Source: an uncultured Alphaproteobacteria bacterium
GTDB lineage: Bacteria > Pseudomonadota > Alphaproteobacteria > SP197
DNA length: 64,000 bases
Reading direction: 5' to 3'
Assembly (NCBI GenBank): GCA_958295695.1
Contig: OY282363.1
Span: 1,738,225-1,802,224, forward strand
The stretch's first letter is position 1. The number at the start of each line of letters is the position of its first letter. Shown piece by piece: positions 716 through 33,919 of this stretch. The notes below the pieces were generated by a model. It was given only the letters and a program-made list of their open reading frames with translations, was not told where the DNA came from and searched no databases. The position numbers and the translations under genes were made by a program.

Positions 716-900
716 GTTGTCGGCGCCGGCATGTCGGACCTGGTTGCGGGCCACCGGCTCAAGCAGGTGGGTCTTTCCTTCACCGTTGTCGAGCGCCGCG
801 CCGAGATCGGCGGAACCCGACTCGACAACGCCTCGCGATACAAGCGTCCGGCGTTTGGCGACCGCGTTCTCCGATCGTCCGCTCACTATCGCCCGCGGGT
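716..900 (+). pseudogene. Remnant N-terminus of an FAD-dependent (Baeyer-Villiger/flavin) monooxygenase, decayed
   Basis: Immediately after the glmS stop the frame reads SVVGAGMSDLVAGHRLKQVGLSFTVVERRAEIGGTRLDNASRYKRP. This is a GxGxxG FAD-binding fold followed by a GGTW-like motif. There is no start codon upstream of the motif, and the reading frame degenerates into low-complexity sequence after ~55 aa. Confidence 0.3.
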
Positions 901-1361
901 CCTTCATCAGCAGGAACAGGCGACAGGGATCCGTGGGGCGCGGCTCGAACTCCAGAGCCTCGTACCAAGCCCGCGCCTCGTCGTCCTTGGTGTGGACAGG
1001 AAGCGCCCGGATATCGGCGGCCGCGGCGGTCGAGGATATCCTGGAAGGCCCGCCACCGCCGGTCGTCGATCCGGAACATCCGCCGGGCGACCAAGGTGTC
1101 CTCGGCGGCGGCGACCCCGGCCTCGAGCAGAAACTCCGTGACGTTCTTGTGCGACAAGGCCGCGGCCCGCTGGAGCAACGCCTTCACGCTCGGGGTCGTC
1201 CGAAACTCGATGCGCTACGACTTGTTTTCGGCGATGGCCGTGAGCGTTCCTCCGAGAGGATCCGCCGGCGTCCTGTCATACGGATATTGTACGGACAAGG
1301 ACGCATCGACGCCGGATGTCAATGGCGCTCCAACATGCCTCGCACGAGCCCCAGGCGACGA

Positions 1362-1900
1362 CTACTCGGTCGCCGCGGCCTCATCCTCTTCCTTCATCTG
1401 CTTGAGCAGTTCGGCGTTGTCCATCATGGCCTGCTTGCGGGCGCTACAGGAGCAACCGCCGTACTGGGCCCAGGTCACGGGATCGACGAAGGGGCCCGAC
1501 CACATGCCGACGCCGTCCCGTTCGGCGGCCGCGGCGCGCTCGAGATACTCCGCGCCGCGGTCTTCGTCGGGCACGGCAAGCCCGGCGTCGATCATGGCGC
1601 CGGCGAGGTCGCGGCCCGCGGCGCTGCAACGGCCCACGAGGCCCGCGCCCGTTTCCGCGATGTCCGAGCAGACGACCTCGTCGGCGCCGATCGCTTCTTC
1701 GAGATAGAGCGCCGCGTCCCAGCCGCAGGACCAGACGTTGTCCCTGGAACCGCAATTCTGGGTGATGGTCGGCGCGTGTACGCCATGGAGGGTCACCTCC
1801 CGTTCGCCGAACCGCACGGTGTCGCCGTCCATCACCATGGGTTGGCCGGCGAACTCGGCGAACGCCAGAGCGGGCGCCAGAGCGAGGATTGCCGTCAGCA
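1362..1900 (-). CDS. Secreted thermonuclease (staphylococcal-nuclease-like) family protein
   Basis: C-terminal 182 aa of ORF 1362..2696, from a GTG at 1900. It has a signal-peptide-like N-terminus (VKRLLTAILALAPALAFA) followed by the SNase-like core (MVMDGDTVRF...EVTLHGVHAPT...). Confidence 0.7.
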
Positions 1901-1984
1901 GACGTTTCACGGTGTCCCTCCATCGTGTTTGCCGAGCGACCGGAGTATGGCCCAGGCGCGGGAACCGCGCCAAGAGGCCGGATT

Positions 1985-2788
1985 TCACGTTTCCGCGCGC
2001 CGCAGAACGGCGATGAGCTCGTCTTCGAACGGAACGAGCGCGAGGTCGCGGCCGATGCGGGCGGCCAGCGCTTCGACGTGGCTCCGGTAGGTCTCCCGCA
2101 TGCCCTTCTCCCGGCCGCCGAGCGACCGTGCGGGGTAGGTGACGACCACTTGGGGGACGTCGGCGAGGCGCCGGAGCAGCGCGAGGGACGCGCCGTCGTC
2201 CTGCCGGTCGAGGCAGGGCAGGGTTTTGAGCGCCAACGCCAAGTCCGCGCCGCCGCTCTCGATTCCGCCCAGAACGTCGGCCCACAGGCTTTCGCCCGGC
2301 CGGCCGAGGCGCTTGAGAAGCCGCCCCGTCGCCTCCGCGACGCGGCGGTTCGCCTCCACGGCGCGGTAGCGGGTCGAGGGCGGTAGACCCATGAACGGCA
2401 GCGCGAAACCGTTGAAACCCGCCGCGACATCCAGGATGTGCGCGGGGAACCCGGTCTGGGCCCAGATGGCGGCGTAGAAGGCGTCCAGACGGTCGAGCCG
2501 CTCCGCGCTGGAGCGGTGCAGGCGGAGGACCGCCCGGCATGTCTCGACGATGTCGGCGCCGGTGTCCAGCGCATCGAGCCGGCGTTCGAGCGCGCGCAGG
2601 CTCCCGGGATCGAGGTAGGCGCCGAAAGCCTGATGCAACTTGCGCTTGGCGGCCTTCAACGCCTCGGCGGGCCTCGAATGCCGCTCGATCGCCCATCGCG
2701 CCGTTCGCTCCAGGGCCTCGGGCGCCAGGTCGCGGTACTTCGACGATGACGAGAGGACCCCGACGACCGAAGCGAGGGGATCAGCCAT
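1985..2788 (-). CDS. FmrO/Rmt/ArmA-family 16S rRNA (guanine1405-N7)-methyltransferase homologue
   Basis: 267 aa. Block-wise similarity to RmtB/ArmA: SSKYRDLAPE vs SKKYRALCPD, KRKLHQAFGAY vs KKKLHQIWGSY, LDVAAGFNGFAL vs LDFGCGFNPLAL, ALKTLPCLDRQ vs LLKMLPVLKQQ, YPARSLGGREKGMRETY vs FPTRSLGGRGKGMEANY. It overlaps the upstream tgt-like stop by 8 bp. Confidence 0.8.
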   Translation of the reverse strand: MADPLASVVGVLSSSSKYRDLAPEALERTARWAIERHSRPAEALKAAKRKLHQAFGAYLDPGSLRALERRLDALDTGADIVETCRAVLRLHRSSAERLDRLDAFYAAIWAQTGFPAHILDVAAGFNGFALPFMGLPPSTRYRAVEANRRVAEATGRLLKRLGRPGESLWADVLGGIESGGADLALALKTLPCLDRQDDGASLALLRRLADVPQVVVTYPARSLGGREKGMRETYRSHVEALAARIGRDLALVPFEDELIAVLRRAET

Positions 2789-3866
2789 CGGCCTCGCTCC
2801 GGCGCATCCTGTCGATCAACCGGGCGTAGAATCCGAGGTTGTGGCGCGTGGCCAGCCGCTCCGCCGCCGCATCGCCGATCTTGAAGAGATGATGAAGGTA
2901 GGCGCGCGAGGGGCCTTCGGGATCGAGGGACGGGTCTAGGGCCGACCGGTCTCGCGAGTGCCGTTCATGCTCCATGTAGAGAACATCATAAGATTTATTA
3001 TTTTTCAATATATTATCACTATTATCTAATGTAATATATAAACGCTTGCGACGAGCGTTGCGAGTGGGCAGGGCGCAGTCGAACAGACGGTAGCCGGCCC
3101 GCCAGGCCGCGAGCATGTTTTCCGGCTTTCCGATGCCGAGCGCATGCTTGGGGGCGTCCGCGGGCAGCAGGTCCGCGGTCATGGCGACCATGTCCGTCAG
3201 CAGGCCGTCGTCGCCGATGGGCCAGCCGCCGAAGCCGAAACCGTCGAAACCCATGCCGGCGAGCTCGCCGGCGCAACGTCTGCGCAGGTCGGGATCGGCG
3301 CCGCCCTGGACGACCGCGAAGAGCAGGGGGCGCCCGGCGGCGGCGGCGCCCGGTTCGCAGCCGGCCCGGGCGACGAATTCGTCGCGGCAGCGCCGCGCCC
3401 AGTCGAGCGTCCGTTCGATCCCGGCCCGCTGCGCCTCGGCGGGATCGTTGGGGTGGGTGCACTGGTCGAGGCAGAACAGGATGTCGGCGTCGAGATCGAG
3501 CTGGCGCCGGATACACTTCTCGGGCGTGAGGAGGCGCTTCCTGGCGCCCTTTTCGTGCCGGTAGACGAAGCCCCTGTCGGTCACGCTGCCGAGGCCCGCG
3601 CCGGACGCGGCCATCGACCACGCCTGGAAGCCTCCGGAATCGGACGCGGCGATGCCGTTCCAGCCCATGAAGCGGTGGACGCCGCCCACGGCCTTCACGG
3701 TCGAGGCGCCCGGCCGCGTGGCGAGATGCAGGCTGTTCACCATCAGCGCCTCGACGCCGCATTCGGCGAGGTCGCGGGAATCGAGACCCTTCACGACCGC
3801 GCGCGTGCCGTCGGGCAGGAACGCCGGCAGGCGGAGCGGGCCGCGGCGGGTGCCGAGGACCTTCAC
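2781..3866 (-). CDS. tRNA-guanine transglycosylase (Tgt) paralogue lacking the zinc-site cysteines
   Basis: 361 aa. Tgt catalytic motifs are present (SDSGGFQ; LDQCT; GIGKPENM; FDCALPTRNARRKR; SRAYLHHL...RHNLGFY). The CxCxxC zinc site is replaced by LDPSLDPEGPS. The gene contains a 71-bp AT-rich in-frame segment (2974..3044). Its 4-bp start overlaps the rsmI stop. Confidence 0.8.
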   Translation of the reverse strand: MKVLGTRRGPLRLPAFLPDGTRAVVKGLDSRDLAECGVEALMVNSLHLATRPGASTVKAVGGVHRFMGWNGIAASDSGGFQAWSMAASGAGLGSVTDRGFVYRHEKGARKRLLTPEKCIRRQLDLDADILFCLDQCTHPNDPAEAQRAGIERTLDWARRCRDEFVARAGCEPGAAAAGRPLLFAVVQGGADPDLRRRCAGELAGMGFDGFGFGGWPIGDDGLLTDMVAMTADLLPADAPKHALGIGKPENMLAAWRAGYRLFDCALPTRNARRKRLYITLDNSDNILKNNKSYDVLYMEHERHSRDRSALDPSLDPEGPSRAYLHHLFKIGDAAAERLATRHNLGFYARLIDRMRRSEADG

Positions 3867-4573
3867 GCCCGGCCCTTCGTCCGCGGGAACTTCGGGTTGT
3901 CGCCGGCGATCACGACCGTGACCTCGCCCCTGGGCGTCTCCTCCGAGAACCGCGCCGCGAGGGTCGAGATCCAGCCCCGGGCGGTTTCCTCGAACATCTT
4001 GGTGAGCTCGATGCAGACCGCCGCCCTGCGGTCGCCATAGACCTCCAGCGCGTCGGCCAGCAAGGCGCCCAGCCGGTGGGGCGATTCGAACAGCACCTGG
4101 GTGTGGCCGCTGCCGGTTTCGGCGGCCAGGAAGGTCCGCCGCTTGCCGGCCTTGCGCGGCGGGAAGCCGCGGAACGTGTAGCTCGCCGTCGGCAGGCCCG
4201 AGAGCGCGAGCGCGGTGGCGACCGCCGTCGGTCCCGGAACCGCCTCGACCGCGAAACCCTCTTCGGTGGCCATACGGACCGCGCGAAAACCGGGATCGCT
4301 GAGCCCCGGCATGCCGGCGTCGGTGGCGAGCCCCACCTTGAGACCCCGGCGCAGCAGGCCCGCCATGCGTTCCGTGGCCCGGTCCTCGTTATGGTCGTGG
4401 CAGGAGAAGACCACGGGCGGGCTGCGCAGGCCGAAGCGCTCGTAGAGCTTGCGTGTGCGGCGCGTGTCCTCGCAGGCGAGAGCGTCGAGCGAACCCAGGG
4501 TATCGAGGACCCGCTTCGAAATGTCGTCCAGGTTGCCGATAGGCGTGCCGATCAGGATGAGCGTGCCCGTCAT
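3863..4573 (-). CDS. rsmI: 16S rRNA (cytidine1402-2'-O)-methyltransferase
   Basis: Start set at the internal ATG (MTGTLILIGTPIGNLDDIS...) of ORF 3863..4714. Tetrapyrrole-methylase fold motifs are typical of RsmI. Confidence 0.85.
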   Translation of the reverse strand: MTGTLILIGTPIGNLDDISKRVLDTLGSLDALACEDTRRTRKLYERFGLRSPPVVFSCHDHNEDRATERMAGLLRRGLKVGLATDAGMPGLSDPGFRAVRMATEEGFAVEAVPGPTAVATALALSGLPTASYTFRGFPPRKAGKRRTFLAAETGSGHTQVLFESPHRLGALLADALEVYGDRRAAVCIELTKMFEETARGWISTLAARFSEETPRGEVTVVIAGDNPKFPRTKGRA

Positions 4574-4632
4574 GCGCCTTCCGTTCTTGACCCCGCGTCC
4601 GCGCCCCGTTTCCATGCCCGCGTTCGGGCGGG

Positions 4633-6729
4633 TTGTCGAGCATGGCGGGTTCGAAGGAGACCCTCGCGGCCCTGGTGGCGCCGCGGCGCATCGCGGTGGT
4701 CGGCGCCACCCCACGCGAGGGCGCGGTGGGCAACCGGGTGATCCGGCATGTCGCCGGGCCGCGCTTCGCCGGCGGCGTCGTCGCGGTCAACCCGGGCTAC
4801 GGCGAGGTGCTCGGCCGCACTTGCCACCCTTCGCTGGAAGCGCTTCCCGACGCCGCCGATTGCGCGGTCATGTGCGTCGGCGACAACCGCGTCGAGGCGG
4901 CCGTCGAGGACGCCGCGCGCGCCGGCGTCAAGGCGGTCGTCCTGCTCGGCCGCCTCTACGATCCGGGCCACGGCGGCCCCACGCTCCCGGAGCGTGTCGC
5001 GGGCCTCTGCCGGGAGGCCGGCATGGCCGCCTGCGGGGCGAACTGCATGGGTGTGTTCAACACCATCGACGATGTGTGCCTGGCCATGAGCCACCTGCCC
5101 GGGCTGGACCGGCCCGGGCGCATCGGCCTGCTGTCCCACAGCGGCTCGACCTGGTCGGGGCTGGGCGGAAATCACCGGCCGTTGCGTTTCGGGATCGGCG
5201 TCTCGATGGGCAACGAGCTCGTGACGGGCCTGGCGGACTATCTCGAGTTCCTCGTCGAACGTCCCGAAACCTCCGCCATCGGTCTCGTGCTGGAGACGGT
5301 GCGCGACGGCGACCGTTTCGTCGCCGCCGCGGAGGCGGCGGACAGGGCCGGCGTCCCCCTCGTCGCCCTGAAACTCGGCAAGACCGAGAAGGCGCGCGGG
5401 TTCGCGCTCTCCCACAGCGGCGCCCTGGCGGGCGACGAGCGGGTCTACGACGCCGTGTTCCGCCGCCGCAACGTCATCGGCGTCGACACGCTCGACGAGA
5501 TGGCGGATACGCTGGAGGCGATGGCCTGCGGCCGCGCGCCCACGGCCGACACGGTTGGAATCCAGACAGATTCCGGCGGCGAGCGGCAGCTCATCGCCGA
5601 TCTCGCCGAGCGCAACAAGGTGCCGCTCGCTGTCTTCGGCGAGGCCACCCGGGCGGCGCTGGCCGGGGTGCTCGATCCGGGCCTGGAGCCCGACAACCCC
5701 GTGGATTACTGGGGCGAGGGAGGTCTTCCCGTCGCGCCCAGGGTCATGGACGCGATCGCGCGGGCGCCGGAGGTCGGGGTCGTGGTCTTCTCCACCAACA
5801 TGGTGTCGGGCCGTGCGCTGCTCAACGCCTCGACCGCCGCGCTCGAGGACGCCCACCGGGCGACGGACAAGCCCTGCATGATGCTGGCGAACATCTCCGA
5901 CGCCGTCGACGCCGGGGAGGCCGCGCGCCTCCGCGACGCGGGAATCCCCGTCCTTTCGGGCACCGAGACCGGTCTCAGGGCGATCGGCCATCTGATCGGA
6001 TGGCACGCGCGCCGGAGAGAGAGCGGAGAGCGCGGCGGCGCGGTCGAACCACCGGATTCCGGGATCGTGGCGTACTGGCGTCGGCGGCTCGAGGACCGCG
6101 CGCCGGCGCCGGAGGAGGCGATCGCCATGGTCGCCGATTTCGGCGTGCCGGCGCCCGAGACCGCGGTGTGCGCGGACGAGCGGGACGCGGTCGCCGCGGC
6201 GGAACGCATCGGATTCCCGGTCGTGCTGAAGACGGCGGACCCTTCGATCCCGCACAAGACCGACGTGGGCGGCGTTGTTCTGGATATCGGGACCGATGAC
6301 GAGCTTCGCGCGGCCTACCGGGCCATGGCCGGCGCGCTCGGATCCCGCGTCCTGATCCAGCCGATGGTCTCCCCAGGTGTCGAGATGCTCGTCGGGATGA
6401 CGTCGGATCCGACCTTCGGGCCGGTCATGACCCTGGCGACGGGCGGTGTCCTGACGGAGGTGCTGGACGACGCGGTGGCGGCGGCGCCGCCGGTGTCGCC
6501 CGGCGAGGCCGCCGATCTGGTCGCCGGCCTCAAGGGTTCGGTCCTGCTCGATGGCGTGCGCGGCGCGCGGCCGGCGGACCGCGACGCGCTGGCCCGGGCC
6601 GTGTCGCGCCTCTCGGCGATGGCGGTGGCGCTCGGCGACCTGATCGGCGCGTTCGACGTCAATCCCCTGATCGTCCACGAGCGGGGCGTGACCGCCGTCG
6701 ACGCGCTGGTGACGCCGCGGGGACCGTGA
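4633..6729 (+). CDS. Acyl-CoA synthetase (NDP-forming), CoA-binding + ATP-grasp domains (acetate--CoA ligase [ADP-forming]-like)
   Basis: 698 aa. N-terminal CoA-binding Rossmann fold (RRIAVVGATPREGAVG), a succinyl-CoA-synthetase-like middle, and a C-terminal ATP-grasp (FPVVLKTADPSIPHKTDVGGVVLDI). Confidence 0.85.
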   Translation: MSSMAGSKETLAALVAPRRIAVVGATPREGAVGNRVIRHVAGPRFAGGVVAVNPGYGEVLGRTCHPSLEALPDAADCAVMCVGDNRVEAAVEDAARAGVKAVVLLGRLYDPGHGGPTLPERVAGLCREAGMAACGANCMGVFNTIDDVCLAMSHLPGLDRPGRIGLLSHSGSTWSGLGGNHRPLRFGIGVSMGNELVTGLADYLEFLVERPETSAIGLVLETVRDGDRFVAAAEAADRAGVPLVALKLGKTEKARGFALSHSGALAGDERVYDAVFRRRNVIGVDTLDEMADTLEAMACGRAPTADTVGIQTDSGGERQLIADLAERNKVPLAVFGEATRAALAGVLDPGLEPDNPVDYWGEGGLPVAPRVMDAIARAPEVGVVVFSTNMVSGRALLNASTAALEDAHRATDKPCMMLANISDAVDAGEAARLRDAGIPVLSGTETGLRAIGHLIGWHARRRESGERGGAVEPPDSGIVAYWRRRLEDRAPAPEEAIAMVADFGVPAPETAVCADERDAVAAAERIGFPVVLKTADPSIPHKTDVGGVVLDIGTDDELRAAYRAMAGALGSRVLIQPMVSPGVEMLVGMTSDPTFGPVMTLATGGVLTEVLDDAVAAAPPVSPGEAADLVAGLKGSVLLDGVRGARPADRDALARAVSRLSAMAVALGDLIGAFDVNPLIVHERGVTAVDALVTPRGP

Positions 6730-7039: not shown

Positions 7040-7197
7040 CATCCGCCCGGCTTCCTCCGGCCCGGAGTATCGCGCGACAGGGTTCCCGAGGCTGGCGTAC
7101 TTCGGACGCCACGACAAACCCTGTCCGCGCCGTCCGAGGCCGATTGCCGCGCGACTCGCCAACCTGTATCGTCCGGCCGGTCAGCCGGAGGCGTCCG

Positions 7198-8358
7198 ATG
7201 AATCCGACCGAGATGTACGGCCCGCTCCCGGGCGGGTTGCACGACGATCCGCGCCGATCCTACACGATGGCCTCGCGCTACTACACCGACCCCGCGGTTC
7301 TCGACGCGGAGATGGACAGGATCTTCGCGCGTTCGTGGCTCTTCGTGGGTCACGAAAGCCGGATCGCCGAACCGGGAAGCTACAGGACGGTCACGGTCGC
7401 CGACGAGAGCCTGGCGCTGGTCCGCGGCCGCGACGGCGAGCTCCGCTGCTTCTACAACGTGTGCCAGCATCGCGCGCACCGCATCCTGACCGGCGAGGGC
7501 GCGCTCAAGCTCACCATGGTGTGCCCCTACCACGGCTGGGCCTACAACCTGGACGGCACACTGAGGACGGCGCGCGGGTGCGAGAACGTCGAGAACTTCG
7601 ACAAGAGCGAATTCGGCCTCGAGCAGGTGCGTGTGGAAACCATGCTGGGTCTGATCTTCGTCAACCTCGACCCCGGCGCGCGGCCGTTCCGCGAACAATA
7701 TGCCGGACTGGAGGAGGACATCCTGCGCTGGATGCCGCGCGCCGACGGGCTCGGCTTCGCCCGCGCGCGGGATTTCACGATCGAGGCCAACTGGAAGGTC
7801 GTGATCGACAACTTCCAGGAATGCTACCACTGCGAGCCGGCGCATCCGGCCTTCGTCGATATGGTGGCGATGCCGACCTACCGCAACAGGACGCACCGGT
7901 TCTGGTCGGCCCAGACCTCGGACAAGCCGAGTTCCAGGAACAGTTCCGCCTACGCCTTCGAGACCGGTGACGTGGATTTCGGCTATGCGGGCTACTTCGT
8001 CTGGCCGAACCTGACGATCTGGCTGATGCCGGGCGAGCCGAACCTCATGACCCTGCAGATGCTGCCGGACGGTCCGGAACGTTGCGTCGAACACCTGCAT
8101 TGGCATTCGCTGGGCGGCGAACTGACCGGGCAGGCCGTGTCCGCCATCGACTATGTCGTCGATGTTCTGCAACCCGAGGACATCTCGATTTGCGAAAGCG
8201 TCCACCTGGGCCTGAAGTCGCGCGGCTACGACCGGGGCCGCTTCATCGTCGACCGCGACCGGAGCCACATCAGCGAGCACGGCGTCCACCACTTCCACAT
8301 GCTGGTGATGCAGGCGCTGGAGGGCGGACCGTCCCCGGCGACACAGGCCGCGGAGTAG
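7198..8358 (+). CDS. Rieske (2Fe-2S) aromatic-ring-hydroxylating oxygenase, alpha subunit
   Basis: Rieske motif CQHRAH...CPYHGW. A non-haem Fe catalytic domain follows. Start at MNPTEMYG, downstream of the spurious N-terminal extension. Confidence 0.85.
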   Translation: MNPTEMYGPLPGGLHDDPRRSYTMASRYYTDPAVLDAEMDRIFARSWLFVGHESRIAEPGSYRTVTVADESLALVRGRDGELRCFYNVCQHRAHRILTGEGALKLTMVCPYHGWAYNLDGTLRTARGCENVENFDKSEFGLEQVRVETMLGLIFVNLDPGARPFREQYAGLEEDILRWMPRADGLGFARARDFTIEANWKVVIDNFQECYHCEPAHPAFVDMVAMPTYRNRTHRFWSAQTSDKPSSRNSSAYAFETGDVDFGYAGYFVWPNLTIWLMPGEPNLMTLQMLPDGPERCVEHLHWHSLGGELTGQAVSAIDYVVDVLQPEDISICESVHLGLKSRGYDRGRFIVDRDRSHISEHGVHHFHMLVMQALEGGPSPATQAAE

Positions 8359-8397
8359 GGGACGCGGGCGGTCCGTCCCGTCCCGGAGGATGGAGGC

Positions 8398-9006
8398 ATG
8401 ACCGCGACCGCCGACTTCTACTACTCCCCGGGAAGCCGCTACTCGTATCTGGCGGCGACCCGGATCGCCCGCATCGAGCGCGGCGCCGGCGCCGTCTTCA
8501 ACTGGTTGCCGCTCCAGAGCAGCCGGCTGATCGGACGCGGCGGCAAGGACCCGTTCGCCGGCGAACCCCTGTCGGGCCAGTACGACTGGGACTTCCGGCG
8601 CCGGGACGCGGAGGCTTGGGCGGCCTACTACGGGGTCCCGTTCCGCGAGAGCCACGGCCGGCTTTCCTTCGACGAGGAGCTGATCGCCCGCGCGGCGCTG
8701 GCGGCCAGGAAGCAGGACGCCGTGGTCGCCATGAGCCTCCGCCTCTTCGCGATGGTTTACGAGGACGACCGGACCGCGTTGGACGCCGACGACTACATCG
8801 CTGCGGCGGAGGCCCTCGGGCTGGATGGGGCGCGCTACGCCCGGGATCTCATGAGCCGGGAGCTCGGGGGCGAGAACACGGCGTCGATCGGGGAGGCCGC
8901 CCGCCGCGGCGCGTTCGGCGTGCCGACCTTCTTCGTGGGCGAACGCATGTTCTGGGGCAACGACCGGCTGCCGCTCGTCGAGGCGGCGTTGCGGGGAGAT
9001 ATTTGA
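8398..9006 (+). CDS. 2-hydroxychromene-2-carboxylate isomerase / DsbA-like thioredoxin-fold protein
   Basis: 202 aa. DsbA/HCCA-isomerase family pattern (DFYYSPGSRYSYLA...GVPTFFVGERMFWGNDRL). Confidence 0.75.
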   Translation: MTATADFYYSPGSRYSYLAATRIARIERGAGAVFNWLPLQSSRLIGRGGKDPFAGEPLSGQYDWDFRRRDAEAWAAYYGVPFRESHGRLSFDEELIARAALAARKQDAVVAMSLRLFAMVYEDDRTALDADDYIAAAEALGLDGARYARDLMSRELGGENTASIGEAARRGAFGVPTFFVGERMFWGNDRLPLVEAALRGDI

Positions 9007-9008
9007 AA

Positions 9009-9060
9009 GGGACCGCGCCCGCAGGGGGTGGGAGCCGCTCGGCGGGCGCGCGGTCCGCGG
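9009..9060. terminator. Imperfect GC-rich hairpin between convergent genes (putative bidirectional terminator)
   Basis: gggaccgcgcccgc ... gcgggcgcgcggtcc inverted repeat lying between the HCCA-isomerase stop (9006) and the dps stop (9065). Confidence 0.35.
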
Positions 9061-9064
9061 CCGG

Positions 9065-9535
9065 TCAGCCGATCGAGGCGTTCAGCATCCAGGCCGTCTT
9101 GTCGTGCTCGGTCATGCGGCCGATCATCATGTCGGCGGTGACCTCGTCACCGGCCTCTTGCGCGGCTTCCATCGCGGCCTTGGCCGAAAGGGCGAGCCGG
9201 GCGTGGTCGCGGGCGAGATTCCCGAGCATGACGTCGGCGTCCTCGGCGCCGTCGTCCTCGTCGAGGCTGGAGAGCTCCGCGAAGGCGGCATAGCTCCCGG
9301 GCGCCCGGCGACCGATGGCGCGGATGCGCTCCGCGACCTCGTCGGCGGCGAGGAACAGCGCGTTGTACTGCTCGCCGAACATGGCGTGGAGGCTGTGGAA
9401 GCGCGGCCCGGTGACGTTCCAGTGGTAACCCTGTGTCTTGAGCATCAGGAGGTAGGTTTCGGCGAGCACGGCGCCGAGCTTGGAGGCCACCGCGCCGCAG
9501 CTGTTGGCGGATGTCGTCCGGGTTCCCTGGGGCAA
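9065..9535 (-). CDS. dps: DNA starvation/stationary-phase protection protein (ferritin-like)
   Basis: 156 aa. Dps signature residues (HWNVTGPRFHSLHAMFGEQY...DEVAERI). Confidence 0.85.
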   Translation of the reverse strand: MPQGTRTTSANSCGAVASKLGAVLAETYLLMLKTQGYHWNVTGPRFHSLHAMFGEQYNALFLAADEVAERIRAIGRRAPGSYAAFAELSSLDEDDGAEDADVMLGNLARDHARLALSAKAAMEAAQEAGDEVTADMMIGRMTEHDKTAWMLNASIG

Positions 9536-9642
9536 GGCTCTTCTCCGTTTCCTAGATTAGAATAATTCCAAATATAAGAAACGGAGCCGGCGTTTTCAAG
9601 GATCGAGCGCCGGTTTCGCACATTGCCGCGGCGGCCGGGGAG

Positions 9643-10767
9643 CTACGAGGCGCTGTCGCGGGTCTCGCGGAGGCTCCTTCCCAGCCGCGCGCAGCCCTCC
9701 TCGATCTCGTCGAGGCCGGGAAAGCCGAAGGCCAGGCGGATGAAGGGTCCGGCGTCGCCCCGGACGTGAAAATCCGAGCCGTGGGCGACATCGACGCCGT
9801 TGCGGTTGCCTACGGCCCGGAACGCGCCGGGATCGACATCGTCCGGCAGCCGCACCCAGACGAAAAGGCCGCCGGGGGGATTCGTCACCGCGCACTCGTT
9901 TCCCAGGTGCCGGCGCAAGCCGTCGACCATGGCGTCCCGCTTGGCCCTGAGCGCGACATTCGCCATCTCGACGTGCTCCCAGAGGCGGTCGCGCAGGTAT
10001 TCGTGCGTGACGGCCGAGGCCAACGTGTTCGGGCCGGCGTCCATGCGCTTGGCGACGATCCGCTCCAGCATCGGCGGACGGGCGACCAGATAGCCCAGGC
10101 GGACGCCCGGAGCGAAAATCTTGGAGAGGGAGCACAGGTAGATCTGGCGCGGGTCGTCGTCGAGGGCATAGAGGGCCGGCGGCTTGTCGCCATCGTAATG
10201 CACGTCGCCGTAGCAGTTGTCCTCCACGATCGGGATGTCGTGCTCGCGCGCGAGCTCGATCATGCGCAGGCGGCGGTCGGTGGGCAGCACCGCGCCCGTC
10301 GGGTTCTGGTAGGTCGCCAGCGTGTAGATGAAGCGCGGTTTGCGTCCGTCGTCGGCGAGACGGTTCAGCGTGTCGGCCAGCGCGTCCATCCGCATGCCGC
10401 GTTCGTCGAGCGGCACGCCGACCATCTCGATCCCCGACTCCCGGTACGCCCGGATCGTGCCGACGTAGCAGTACTCCTCCATCACCACGATATCGTCGCG
10501 GCCGTCGCGGAGGGCGTCGGTGGCGAGCATGATGGCCTGCATCGATCCGTTGGTGACAAGCATGTGGCCGGGATCGACCGCGACGCCCTCCCGGTCGAAC
10601 TCGCGCCGGGCCATCAGCATGCGAAGGCCCTCGTGGCCCAGATCGCCCGGATAGGTGTTGAGCCCGACGGTCAGGTCCGAGACGGCGCGCCGGGCCGCTT
10701 CGGCGAAGGCTTCGGTGGGAAAGGTCCCGGGGTTCGTGTTGCCCGTGGCGAAACCGATCGCGTCCAT
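9643..10767 (-). CDS. PLP-dependent aminotransferase, class I/II fold
   Basis: Start at MDAIGFATGN within ORF 9643..11220. It has SLSKIFAPGVRLGY (the PLP-lysine region) and a typical AspC/MocR-type layout. Confidence 0.8.
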   Translation of the reverse strand: MDAIGFATGNTNPGTFPTEAFAEAARRAVSDLTVGLNTYPGDLGHEGLRMLMARREFDREGVAVDPGHMLVTNGSMQAIMLATDALRDGRDDIVVMEEYCYVGTIRAYRESGIEMVGVPLDERGMRMDALADTLNRLADDGRKPRFIYTLATYQNPTGAVLPTDRRLRMIELAREHDIPIVEDNCYGDVHYDGDKPPALYALDDDPRQIYLCSLSKIFAPGVRLGYLVARPPMLERIVAKRMDAGPNTLASAVTHEYLRDRLWEHVEMANVALRAKRDAMVDGLRRHLGNECAVTNPPGGLFVWVRLPDDVDPGAFRAVGNRNGVDVAHGSDFHVRGDAGPFIRLAFGFPGLDEIEEGCARLGRSLRETRDSAS

Positions 10768-33337: not shown

Positions 33338-33414
33338 CGGGGCGTGGCGCAGTCCGGTAGCGCACCTGCTTTGGGAGCAGGGGGGCGCTGGTTCGAATCC
33401 AGCCGCCCCGACCA
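33338..33414 (+). tRNA. tRNA-Pro (anticodon TGG)
   Basis: Cloverleaf. Acceptor stem cggggcg/cgccccg. Anticodon loop tttggga has TGG at positions 34-36. T-arm ggttcgaatcc. Encoded CCA 3' end. Confidence 0.85.
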
Positions 33415-33842: not shown

Positions 33843-33919
33843 GCGCCCTTAGCTCAGCCGGATAGAGCAACGGCCTTCTAAGCCGTAGGTCCCAGGTTCG
33901 AATCCTGGAGGGCGCGCCA
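33843..33919 (+). tRNA. tRNA-Arg (anticodon TCT)
   Basis: Acceptor stem gcgccct/agggcgc. D-arm tagctcagccggatagagc. Anticodon loop cttctaa has TCT. T-arm ggttcgaatcc. Encoded CCA. Confidence 0.85.

Follow-up and report, generated by a model that had tools for sequence, protein, structure and literature searches.

A chromosomal rsmI-tgt-fmrO operon of an uncultured alphaproteobacterium is a divergent member of the gene unit that accompanies clinical rmt genes

The stretch of DNA analysed here (hereafter the window) comprises 64,000 nucleotides of contig OY282363.1 from an uncultured alphaproteobacterium (assembly GCA_958295695.1, positions 1,738,225 to 1,802,224). Its six-frame listing of open reading frames (ORFs) and family scans confirmed four genes that all run in the same direction on the minus strand and encode the 16S rRNA methyltransferase RsmI, a paralogue of the guanine base-exchange enzyme Tgt here termed WP-type, a homologue of the FmrO/Rmt methyltransferases and a putative secreted protein with weak similarity to staphylococcal nuclease (SNase). 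The gene arrangement itself is already on record, and the window carries a chromosomal, divergent member of the unit known from rmtG, rmtD2 and rmtB2. We consider it very probable that this unit is a conserved mobile Rmt-Tgt module and the source of clinical rmt genes. The features dealt with below are the following.

3863..4573, minus strand: rsmI (ATG at 4573, stop at 3863, 236 aa), encoding 16S rRNA C1402 2'-O-methyltransferase; first gene of the unit
2781..3866, minus strand: gene of the WP-type Tgt paralogue (GTG at 3866, 361 aa), a homologue of guanine base-exchange enzymes
1985..2788, minus strand: FmrO/Rmt-family gene (ATG at 2788, 267 aa), whose product is a homologue of 16S rRNA (guanine1405-N7)-methyltransferases
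1362..~1910, minus strand: gene of a putative secreted, weakly SNase-like protein (182 aa from GTG at 1910); gene 4 of the cassette
2961..3080, no strand assigned: AT-rich island within the tgt-like gene, a dip in GC content that codes for the variable hairpin preceding the lost zinc knuckle
4574..4632, no strand assigned: divergent intergenic region between rsmI and an acyl-CoA synthetase gene, presumed to be the promoter region of the unit

Read directly from the nucleotides, the junction of rsmI and the tgt-like gene (...GCGTGAAGG) is a GTGA overlap of 4 bp, and that of the tgt-like gene and fmrO (...GATGGCTGATCC) is a ATGGCTGA overlap of 8 bp. Both overlaps, as well as the gene coordinates given in the initial annotation of this DNA, hold, and a translationally coupled unit is supported. 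The GGAAGG ribosome-binding site precedes the rsmI start codon at 4573. A simple scan registered no consensus promoter in 4574..4632, and a promoter and terminator scan of the operon gave nothing convincing, the sole promoter-like site being an internal one in the AT-rich island. Rfam and tRNA scans produced no match in or near the operon.

The product of the third gene matches PF07091 with 145.7 bits over residues 15-259, a span that takes in the 30S-binding domain at the N-terminus, and can be aligned over its full length with Sgm (residues 20-279, E=4.5e-37), RmtB and RmtC. It thus shares with the enzymes of the Rmt/ArmA/Sgm group (PF07091; 3LCU, 3FRH, 6PQB, 8GHU), which form 7-methylguanosine at position 1405 (m7G1405), the combination of N1/N2 30S-binding and class I methyltransferase domains, but its gene lies outside any antibiotic biosynthetic cluster. 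The score with NF000466 Rmt_gen is 178 bits, below the cut-off of 250, and identity to RmtG, RmtD and RmtB is only 29-35%; the protein is a distant member of the Rmt family and none of the named acquired Rmt types. Residues critical for RmtC/RmtB are K20, R50, H54 (N1), R111, D160, D188 (S-adenosylmethionine, SAM), R211, K236, R241 and M245 (bioRxiv 10.1101/712810). When these positions were mapped via the motifs of RmtB2, RmtD2 and RmtG, the window protein was found to have K, K, H, R, E, D, R, R, R and M, so that all ten are kept, and in Tgt-adjacent homologues from other genomes they are conserved in 59-71 of 71 proteins. Judging by these residues the window protein is probably an active methyltransferase of the m7G1405 type.

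Relatives of the window Tgt were sought by scanning one genome per GTDB species with the subfamily peptides DG[FY]G[FY]GGW and FCLD[HQE]CTH. At least 538 encoding stretches were obtained in this way, and the counts given below refer to the best 80 loci, all from species-level genomes, at which neighbouring genes were called by tblastn with the window proteins. There are thousands of relatives overall, and the subfamily, 42-77% identical to the window Tgt, is spread over many phyla. The 80 loci span about 20 of them and come from Alphaproteobacteria, Latescibacterota, Coatesbacteria, Gemmatimonadota, Hydrogenedentota, Nitrospirota, Armatimonadota, Bacteroidota, Actinomycetota, Ignavibacteriota, Bacillota, Spirochaetota, Acidobacteriota, Chloroflexota, Planctomycetota, Myxococcota, Patescibacteria, Poribacteria and others. 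An FmrO-like gene is present in 76 of the 80 loci and directly adjacent to tgt in 71 (downstream in 66 and upstream in 5); rsmI stands immediately upstream in 42, often with small overlaps. The reverse test, made on metagenome contigs seeded on the FmrO motif alone, gave a symmetrical picture: among 80 loci the Tgt-like gene adjoins FmrO in 65, is missing in 7, and 8 are too short (65 of 72 decidable cases). In 37 complete modules the protein distances of Tgt and FmrO co-vary with a Mantel r of 0.79, as compared to 0.67 for Tgt and RsmI. The linkage of Tgt and FmrO is far beyond chance, and the co-occurrence which the initial annotation had proposed to profile is kept across about 20 phyla. 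All-against-all clustering of ORFs from the 80 loci revealed no gene family beyond the module that is common to more than 10 of them, and the genes 5' of tgt where rsmI is absent are heterogeneous. The contig index contained no exact protein match to the window Tgt.

The two partners also occur as one polypeptide. At least eight single-chain Tgt-FmrO proteins carrying both PF01702 and PF07091 were registered (P0121-P0126, P0131 and P0149). The planctomycetotal locus L038 encodes, at 7989-9980, a protein of 663 aa with the Tgt domain at the N-terminus and a full FmrO domain at the C-terminus, and a search with this fusion returned seven more two-domain proteins (P0122-P0126, P0131, P0149). The fusion proteins originate from independent samples, are 40-62% identical to one another, and have linkers of two types, either short or long and rich in Asp, Ala and Pro. 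This is a maintained Rosetta-stone fusion and no assembly artefact, and together with the linkage statistics it excludes chance adjacency.

Hardly tenable is therefore the supposition that the genes are neighbours by chance or by hitch-hiking, with no shared function, and we give as little credit to its counterpart, a DpdA-type system of DNA 7-deazaguanine modification or defence. Precedents for retargeting of the Tgt scaffold with the catalytic Asp kept do exist in DpdA, recruited to DNA, and in Cap10 of the type IV cyclic oligonucleotide-based antiphage signalling system (CBASS), recruited to protein modification (bioRxiv 10.1101/2025.04.06.647259; PMC10516641). However, the module differs from both in that its partner, in 76 of 80 loci, is an rRNA methyltransferase and not DpdB/C or Cap9, and there is no sequence-family match to them. 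PADLOC found no match for any of the four window proteins, and neither dpdB/dpdC-like genes nor any other conserved neighbour family stand beside the module. The DNA-directed, DpdA-like option considered in the initial annotation is thus unsupported and was rejected.

The surroundings of the pair vary in a way that reinforces the emphasis which the initial annotation had placed on helix 44: RsmH (m4C1402) or RsmI (Cm1402) flank it in other lineages, and the proven G1405 methyltransferases RmtG, RmtD2 and RmtB2 are found in a like arrangement. Two loci of Aminicenantes/Acidobacteriota (L019, 6288-9972, and L020, 2561-6266) have four-gene arrays rsmH-rsmI-tgt-fmrO, in which both C1402 methyltransferases are joined to the Tgt-FmrO pair. 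Two FmrO paralogues are present in 18 of the 80 loci, the second one occurring in modules of Chloroflexota, Bacteroidota, Ignavibacteriota and Spirochaetota either in tandem or across rsmI-tgt (L012, L014, L018, L024, L026, L029, L046, L051, L056, L059, L061, L064, L065, L068, L070, L072 and L075). Where present, the second paralogues differ at several of the positions critical for RmtC/RmtB; the proline of their LPxLE motif is altered, often to His, and the methionine of KGM is changed to Leu or Ile, which suggests a different target or specificity. In Chloroflexota of the Brevefilum type (L046, L056, L059, L061, L068, L072) the TP_methylase whose gene immediately precedes tgt has only about 30% identity to the window RsmI, and a second rsmI, 47-51% identical, is situated about 7 kb away on the opposite strand, so that these modules seem to be equipped with a separate, diverged paralogue of RsmI.

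The window Tgt scores 266 bits with PF01702 and 255.8 bits with TIGR00430, the latter being below the cut-off of 306.75. For the module family as a whole the TIGR00430 scores cover 255-332 bits (294-332 in other members), as against 639 for canonical Tgt. Since these values straddle the cut-off, the proteins are annotated in a mixed manner, either as 'tRNA guanosine(34) transglycosylase' or as 'family protein', and the former name, when applied to WP-type proteins, is a threshold artefact. Identity is 42-77% within the module family and 32-40% to canonical (gammaproteobacterial) Tgt; queA is adjacent in none of the 80 loci and yajC/secD in one, and none of these genes is found in the window. 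The AlphaFold2 (AF2) model of the window Tgt (predicted local distance difference test, pLDDT, 89.6; predicted template modelling score, pTM, 0.90) superimposes on the Tgt of Zymomonas mobilis with a template modelling (TM) score of 0.86-0.89. With enzymes of the Z. mobilis/Escherichia coli type it shares the TIM barrel, the Asp102/Asp280 pair and the recognition residues Asp156, Gln203 and Gly230. It differs from canonical Tgt by the absence of about 25 N-terminal residues, the N-terminal strand being lost family-wide, and by a basic RxKR following Arg289 in the WP-type.

Motifs SDSGGFQ and FDCALPTRNARRKR are kept in the window protein, and both catalytic Asp align with those of Z. mobilis Tgt. 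In Z. mobilis numbering, D102, D156, G229, G230 and D280 are invariant in all 80 loci, and Q203 is found in 79. The proposal of the initial annotation that this Tgt represents a distinct paralogue family with catalytic residues kept is thus upheld by 79-80 of 80 relatives. The same invariance bears on the idea that Tgt is a non-catalytic docking or assembly subunit of the methyltransferase, comparable to QTRT2 in the eukaryotic enzyme. Tight pairing and fusion, as well as loss of the zinc site in the window clade, are what such a subunit might display, but catalytic Asp and guanine-binding residues would hardly be retained in 79-80 of 80 proteins, nor would the ratio of nonsynonymous to synonymous substitutions (dN/dS) of the tgt-like gene stay at 0.12-0.23; besides, Rmt enzymes bind and methylate the 30S subunit alone (bioRxiv 10.1101/712810). 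We regard a purely structural role as highly improbable.

The pocket is altered at one definite place. Canonical Tgt has a flipping peptide at Leu231/Ala232, stabilised in both of its states by Glu235: in one, the NH points by way of a water molecule to N7 of guanine-34, and in the other the C=O points to the aminomethyl group of preQ1 (PMC3660597). In the WP-type, Leu231 is replaced by Trp in 79 of 80 loci and Ala232 by Pro in all 80, the window protein having the same Trp-Pro pair, and neither E235 nor E157 is conserved across the 80 loci. Because proline at position 232 has no NH, the switch is inoperable. To judge from the residues retained and lost, the WP-type Tgt would still read the Watson-Crick face of a guanine-type base, with position 7 being read differently. 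Position 7 is the very atom methylated by the partner enzyme, and we infer a connection between the two. The actinobacterial Tgt homologue of another locus, L085 (Nocardia farcinica NCTC11134 'plasmid 2', 2.66 Mb), has no Leu-Ala-Val segment (GIGGALEKH), bears a long insertion after SGGFQ and appears to represent a further Tgt subfamily whose specificity loop is altered.

Loss of the NH that reads N7 could equally be expected of an enzyme that removes what its partner writes, i.e. a Tgt which swaps m7G1405 back to guanine, making the mark reversible or clearing off-target m7G. Guanine is the default base for exchange in the Tgt family (PMC3660597), and no genes of precursor biosynthesis are linked to the module, as such a reaction would allow. 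Writer and eraser that are translated together or fused would, however, run a futile cycle, and the module is devoid of a regulator. We know of no organism in which reversibility of m7G1405 is indicated, and consider erasure improbable.

RsmI of the window is an ordinary member of its family, with 98.6 bits for PF00590 and 181.3 bits for the equivalog TIGR00096 (cut-off 167.9). It matches E. coli RsmI (5HW4) with E=3.3e-43 over residues 3-225, that is, the whole catalytic domain, but is short (236 aa) and lacks the C-terminal extension of about 50 residues that the E. coli protein has. What distinguishes it from the housekeeping RsmI/RsmH pair, which forms m4Cm1402, is its place at the head of an operon holding accessory genes. 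Three relatives (L166-L168) encode an RsmI 65-71% identical to that of the window, likewise with the gene of an ADP-forming acyl-CoA synthetase as divergent neighbour, but tgt, fmrO and the SNase-like gene are all absent behind it. Since these cassette-free relatives keep the synteny of rsmI and the synthetase gene, rsmI is a resident housekeeping gene and tgt-fmrO-SNase an accessory cassette located directly 3' of it, which may be present or absent. For this clade the inclusion of rsmI in the transferred unit was rejected on the same grounds. Presence or absence of the cassette among close relatives is also indirect evidence against the Tgt paralogue being the housekeeping queuosine enzyme of the organism. 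The rsmI, tgt-like and fmrO genes are all under purifying selection (dN/dS 0.12-0.23), the values for rsmI being 0.14-0.17. The synthetase gene occupies 4633-6729 of the window; its copy in L001 matches in fragments only and may be a pseudogene.

Acquired G1405 methyltransferases (ArmA/Rmt) are responsible for pan-aminoglycoside resistance of clinical Gram-negative bacteria, and RmtB, RmtD and RmtG are established m7G1405 resistance enzymes. A tblastn search of PLSDB with the window Tgt revealed 'Tgt' genes with products 40-44% identical to it, located upstream of such acquired resistance genes:

pKP13f (NZ_CP004000.1): rsmH-tgt-rmtG-(truncated rsmI-like gene), overlaps of 4 bp and 8 bp, with IS91/ISCR and IS26 beside
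2964TF: tgt-rmtD2-IS91
p12100-NDM (L082, Providencia plasmid): tgt-metallophosphoesterase-rmtB2

The plasmid Tgt proteins share the subfamily signature PAFFPDAT, ALDxCTHP, GFGGWPL and LPTREARHQRLY, retain the zinc site and form a clade of their own, being 65-77% identical mutually and about 50-55% to environmental members. Thus, the window resembles the rmtG, rmtD2 and rmtB2 contexts in the order of tgt and rmt and in the WP-type of its Tgt, and pKP13f, in addition, in the 4-bp and 8-bp overlaps at the junctions and in the attached gene of a C1402 methyltransferase, which is rsmI upstream in the window and rsmH in the plasmid. It differs from the plasmids in that its copy is chromosomal, belongs to a GC-rich alphaproteobacterium, has no flanking ISCR, IS91 or IS26, encodes a Tgt without the zinc knuckle and has the SNase-like gene added. 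In p12100-NDM the metallophosphoesterase gene lies at 7131-7940 between the tgt paralogue and rmtB2, and a gap of similar size separates tgt from fmrO in L054.

The initial annotation took a helix 44 module with a Tgt paralogue to be undescribed, which was too strong: directly in front of rmtG a coding sequence (CDS) of a 'putative tRNA ribosyltransferase' has been reported (PMC3904158), and in a review (PMC9311965), citing Passarelli-Araujo 2019, rmtG is placed in an operon with rsmH, tgt and rsmL. The 'rsmL' of that operon is read here as rsmI. A similar remark was reportedly made for rmtD by Doi et al. in 2008. In the searchable literature no functional study of the pair was found, nor any paper addressing its generality, the fusions or the role of Tgt. 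Against this literature the features that appear to be new are the breadth and reciprocity of the pairing, the fusions, the WP-type subfamily, in which the peptide switch is abolished, the polymorphism by which the cassette is present or absent behind rsmI, and the zinc-less variant with the AT-rich island.

This last variant is confined to the clade of the window. Of the four zinc ligands of Z. mobilis Tgt, the window protein still has His349 but not Cys318, Cys320 and Cys323, which have been replaced or deleted, and AF2 predicts order for the zinc-less segment (pLDDT >90). Loss of CxCxxC is limited to the window, L001 and L002 (3 of 81), partial changes being found in one or two other loci. 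The absence of zinc ligands, emphasised in the initial annotation, therefore stands for the window Tgt, where three Cys are gone, but not for the family, in which 76-77 of 80 relatives keep the motif, and it was rejected as a key family feature. The loss coincides with the AT-rich island, which is about 100 bp long and has a GC content of 0.23-0.48 versus about 0.70 for the tgt-like gene; a dip at the same place is present in L001 and L002 (~8840-8900) and in no other member. The hairpin encoded there is modelled with a pLDDT of 61, and the DNA carries a sigma70-like hexamer pair at 3035..3007 on the minus strand. The island may be a promoter inside the gene or a patch left by recombination.

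The fourth gene is likewise a local addition, being found after fmrO only in the window clade (L001, L002, L086) and absent at all other loci. A secreted SNase had been proposed for it, and the ORF with a signal-peptide-like N-terminus is indeed there, but the similarity to SNase is weak: PF00565 is matched with E=0.022 and 15.7 bits (cut-off 21), albeit across profile positions 2-106 of 107, and no sequence match in PDB was found. It does follow fmrO, although at 74 bp, if GTG 1910 is used, and not at the 84 bp given before.

Other genes of the vicinity have no evident part in the unit. Between glmS and the cassette, an ORF at 780-1187 (minus strand) matches antitoxins of the TacA type in its N-terminal 54 residues (PF08681, E=8e-16) and continues into an unrelated tail rich in Arg and Gly. 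No gene for a GNAT toxin is evident behind it, and the ORF is probably what is left of a decayed toxin-antitoxin pair. The region 7150-9006 contains a gene for the alpha subunit of a Rieske-type ring-hydroxylating oxygenase (PF00355 and PF00848) followed by a DsbA-like gene (PF01323), which is an ordinary catabolic context with no relation to the cassette. The only Rfam and ARAGORN matches in the 64-kb window are tRNA-Pro(TGG) at 33338-33414 and tRNA-Arg(TCT) at 33843-33919, situated 430 bp apart.

Based on these data we tentatively regard the locus as an accessory, horizontally mobile cassette that may modify the top of helix 44, i.e. the decoding centre, of 16S rRNA and thereby provide aminoglycoside resistance. 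It would have entered immediately behind the resident rsmI, to which it is coupled in translation. Its FmrO/Rmt-type enzyme would dock on the assembled 30S subunit and methylate N7 of G1405, as was shown for its relatives, and m7G1405 would block 4,6-disubstituted deoxystreptamine aminoglycosides, making the host intrinsically resistant. Since Arm/Rmt enzymes are known to disturb housekeeping methylations close by (ArmA, for instance, prevents RsmI from methylating C1402; Lioy 2014, as summarised in PMC12406665), operon coupling may serve to coordinate modification of C1402, so that co-translation with RsmI, and elsewhere with RsmH and/or RsmI, would keep the formation of m4Cm1402 in step.

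For the Tgt partner we lean, with similar reserve, towards action on 16S rRNA or the 30S subunit at the same site as the methyltransferase rather than on G34 of tRNA, because the pairing is near-obligate and reciprocal, the two domains are fused, the N7 switch is lost and the genomic context is non-canonical. In the model favoured here the WP-type Tgt would be a catalytically competent exchanger of guanine-type bases with a pocket lacking the N7-reading element; it would take N7-methylated G1405 or a neighbouring G and swap it for another guanine-type base, m7G being a better leaving group for which no hydrogen bond to N7 would be needed. Taken by itself, an exchange activated by methylation, in which m7G1405 would be the leaving base, is rather unlikely. 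Unlikely, too, is the full scheme of base exchange in rRNA by the WP-type Tgt, in which the native task of Rmt-type enzymes would be to 'activate' G1405 by N7-methylation, so that their obligate or fused Tgt partner could put another base of the guanine type, for example a 7-deazaguanine, in the place of m7G. We know of no report of transglycosylation as an rRNA modification. What bacterial Tgt mainly requires of its U-G-U target is the G-U step, and the nucleotide after G1405 of 16S rRNA is U1406, which would fit this step and may be used as a lead only.

A number of observations weigh against placing Tgt on the ribosome, and most of them would suit an ordinary tRNA enzyme working in an operon of aminoglycoside tolerance or decoding fidelity, which would convert G34 of tRNA Asp, Asn, His and Tyr to preQ1 or a related base. 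Some module members exceed the TIGR00430 cut-off for Tgt equivalogs; the Tgt fold, the catalytic Asp pair and the ligands of the guanine face are conserved, and so is the zinc site in most relatives. R286 and R289 are invariant in 80 of 80 loci, and these residues, which we take to be contacts with the anticodon arm, are compatible with tRNA binding. No queuosine-precursor genes were linked to the module in the ORF clustering of the 80 loci. Going by annotation, the commonest plasmid context of RmtB has no tgt nearby, and RmtB confers resistance alone; thus the methyltransferase needs no Tgt, and tgt could be a hitch-hiker on segments mobilised by ISCR/IS91. The linkage itself would then be explained by co-selection of queuosine-34 (Q34), m4Cm1402 and m7G1405 for decoding under aminoglycosides, or by compensation of an error-prone phenotype caused by m7G1405. 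Most Arm/Rmt enzymes do make translation error-prone (PMC12406665), and transposon insertion sequencing (Tn-seq) of Vibrio cholerae in tobramycin below the minimum inhibitory concentration (sub-MIC) gave values of -15.8x for tgt and -8.4x for both rsmH and rsmI, which places all three among the genes that growth under these conditions depends on most (PMC10117853).

This tRNA explanation, the strongest of the competing ones, we nevertheless find somewhat doubtful. The peptide switch by which the pocket of canonical Tgt takes first guanine and then preQ1 is replaced by the invariant Trp-Pro pair, and Glu235 is lost (PMC3660597). The adjacency to fmrO is tighter than that to rsmI, the canonical context queA-tgt-yajC-secDF was never seen at the 80 loci, the cassette comes and goes among close relatives, and the architecture is eroded, family-wide at the N-terminal strand and in the window clade at the zinc site. 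Tgt is, moreover, recurrently fused to a methyltransferase specific for the 30S subunit, and to our knowledge a fusion of enzymes acting on different RNAs has no precedent.

The window provides a case, on a chromosome, of the apparent natural genetic unit of Rmt-type enzymes, which bears on their origin and native role, and the signature of a GFGGWP Tgt next to FmrO may be used to trace reservoirs of rmt genes. If the Tgt partner acts on the ribosome, it would represent a new class of rRNA modification and could alter the resistance or fitness of bacteria carrying rmtD or rmtG; otherwise it would be an enzyme dedicated to tRNA, cushioning decoding against the methylation of helix 44. Should methylation indeed activate G1405 for exchange, clinical m7G1405 resistance would stem from the first of the two steps of a hypermodification pathway, whose second enzyme was left behind in the case of rmtB1 and acquired along with rmtD, rmtG and rmtB2.

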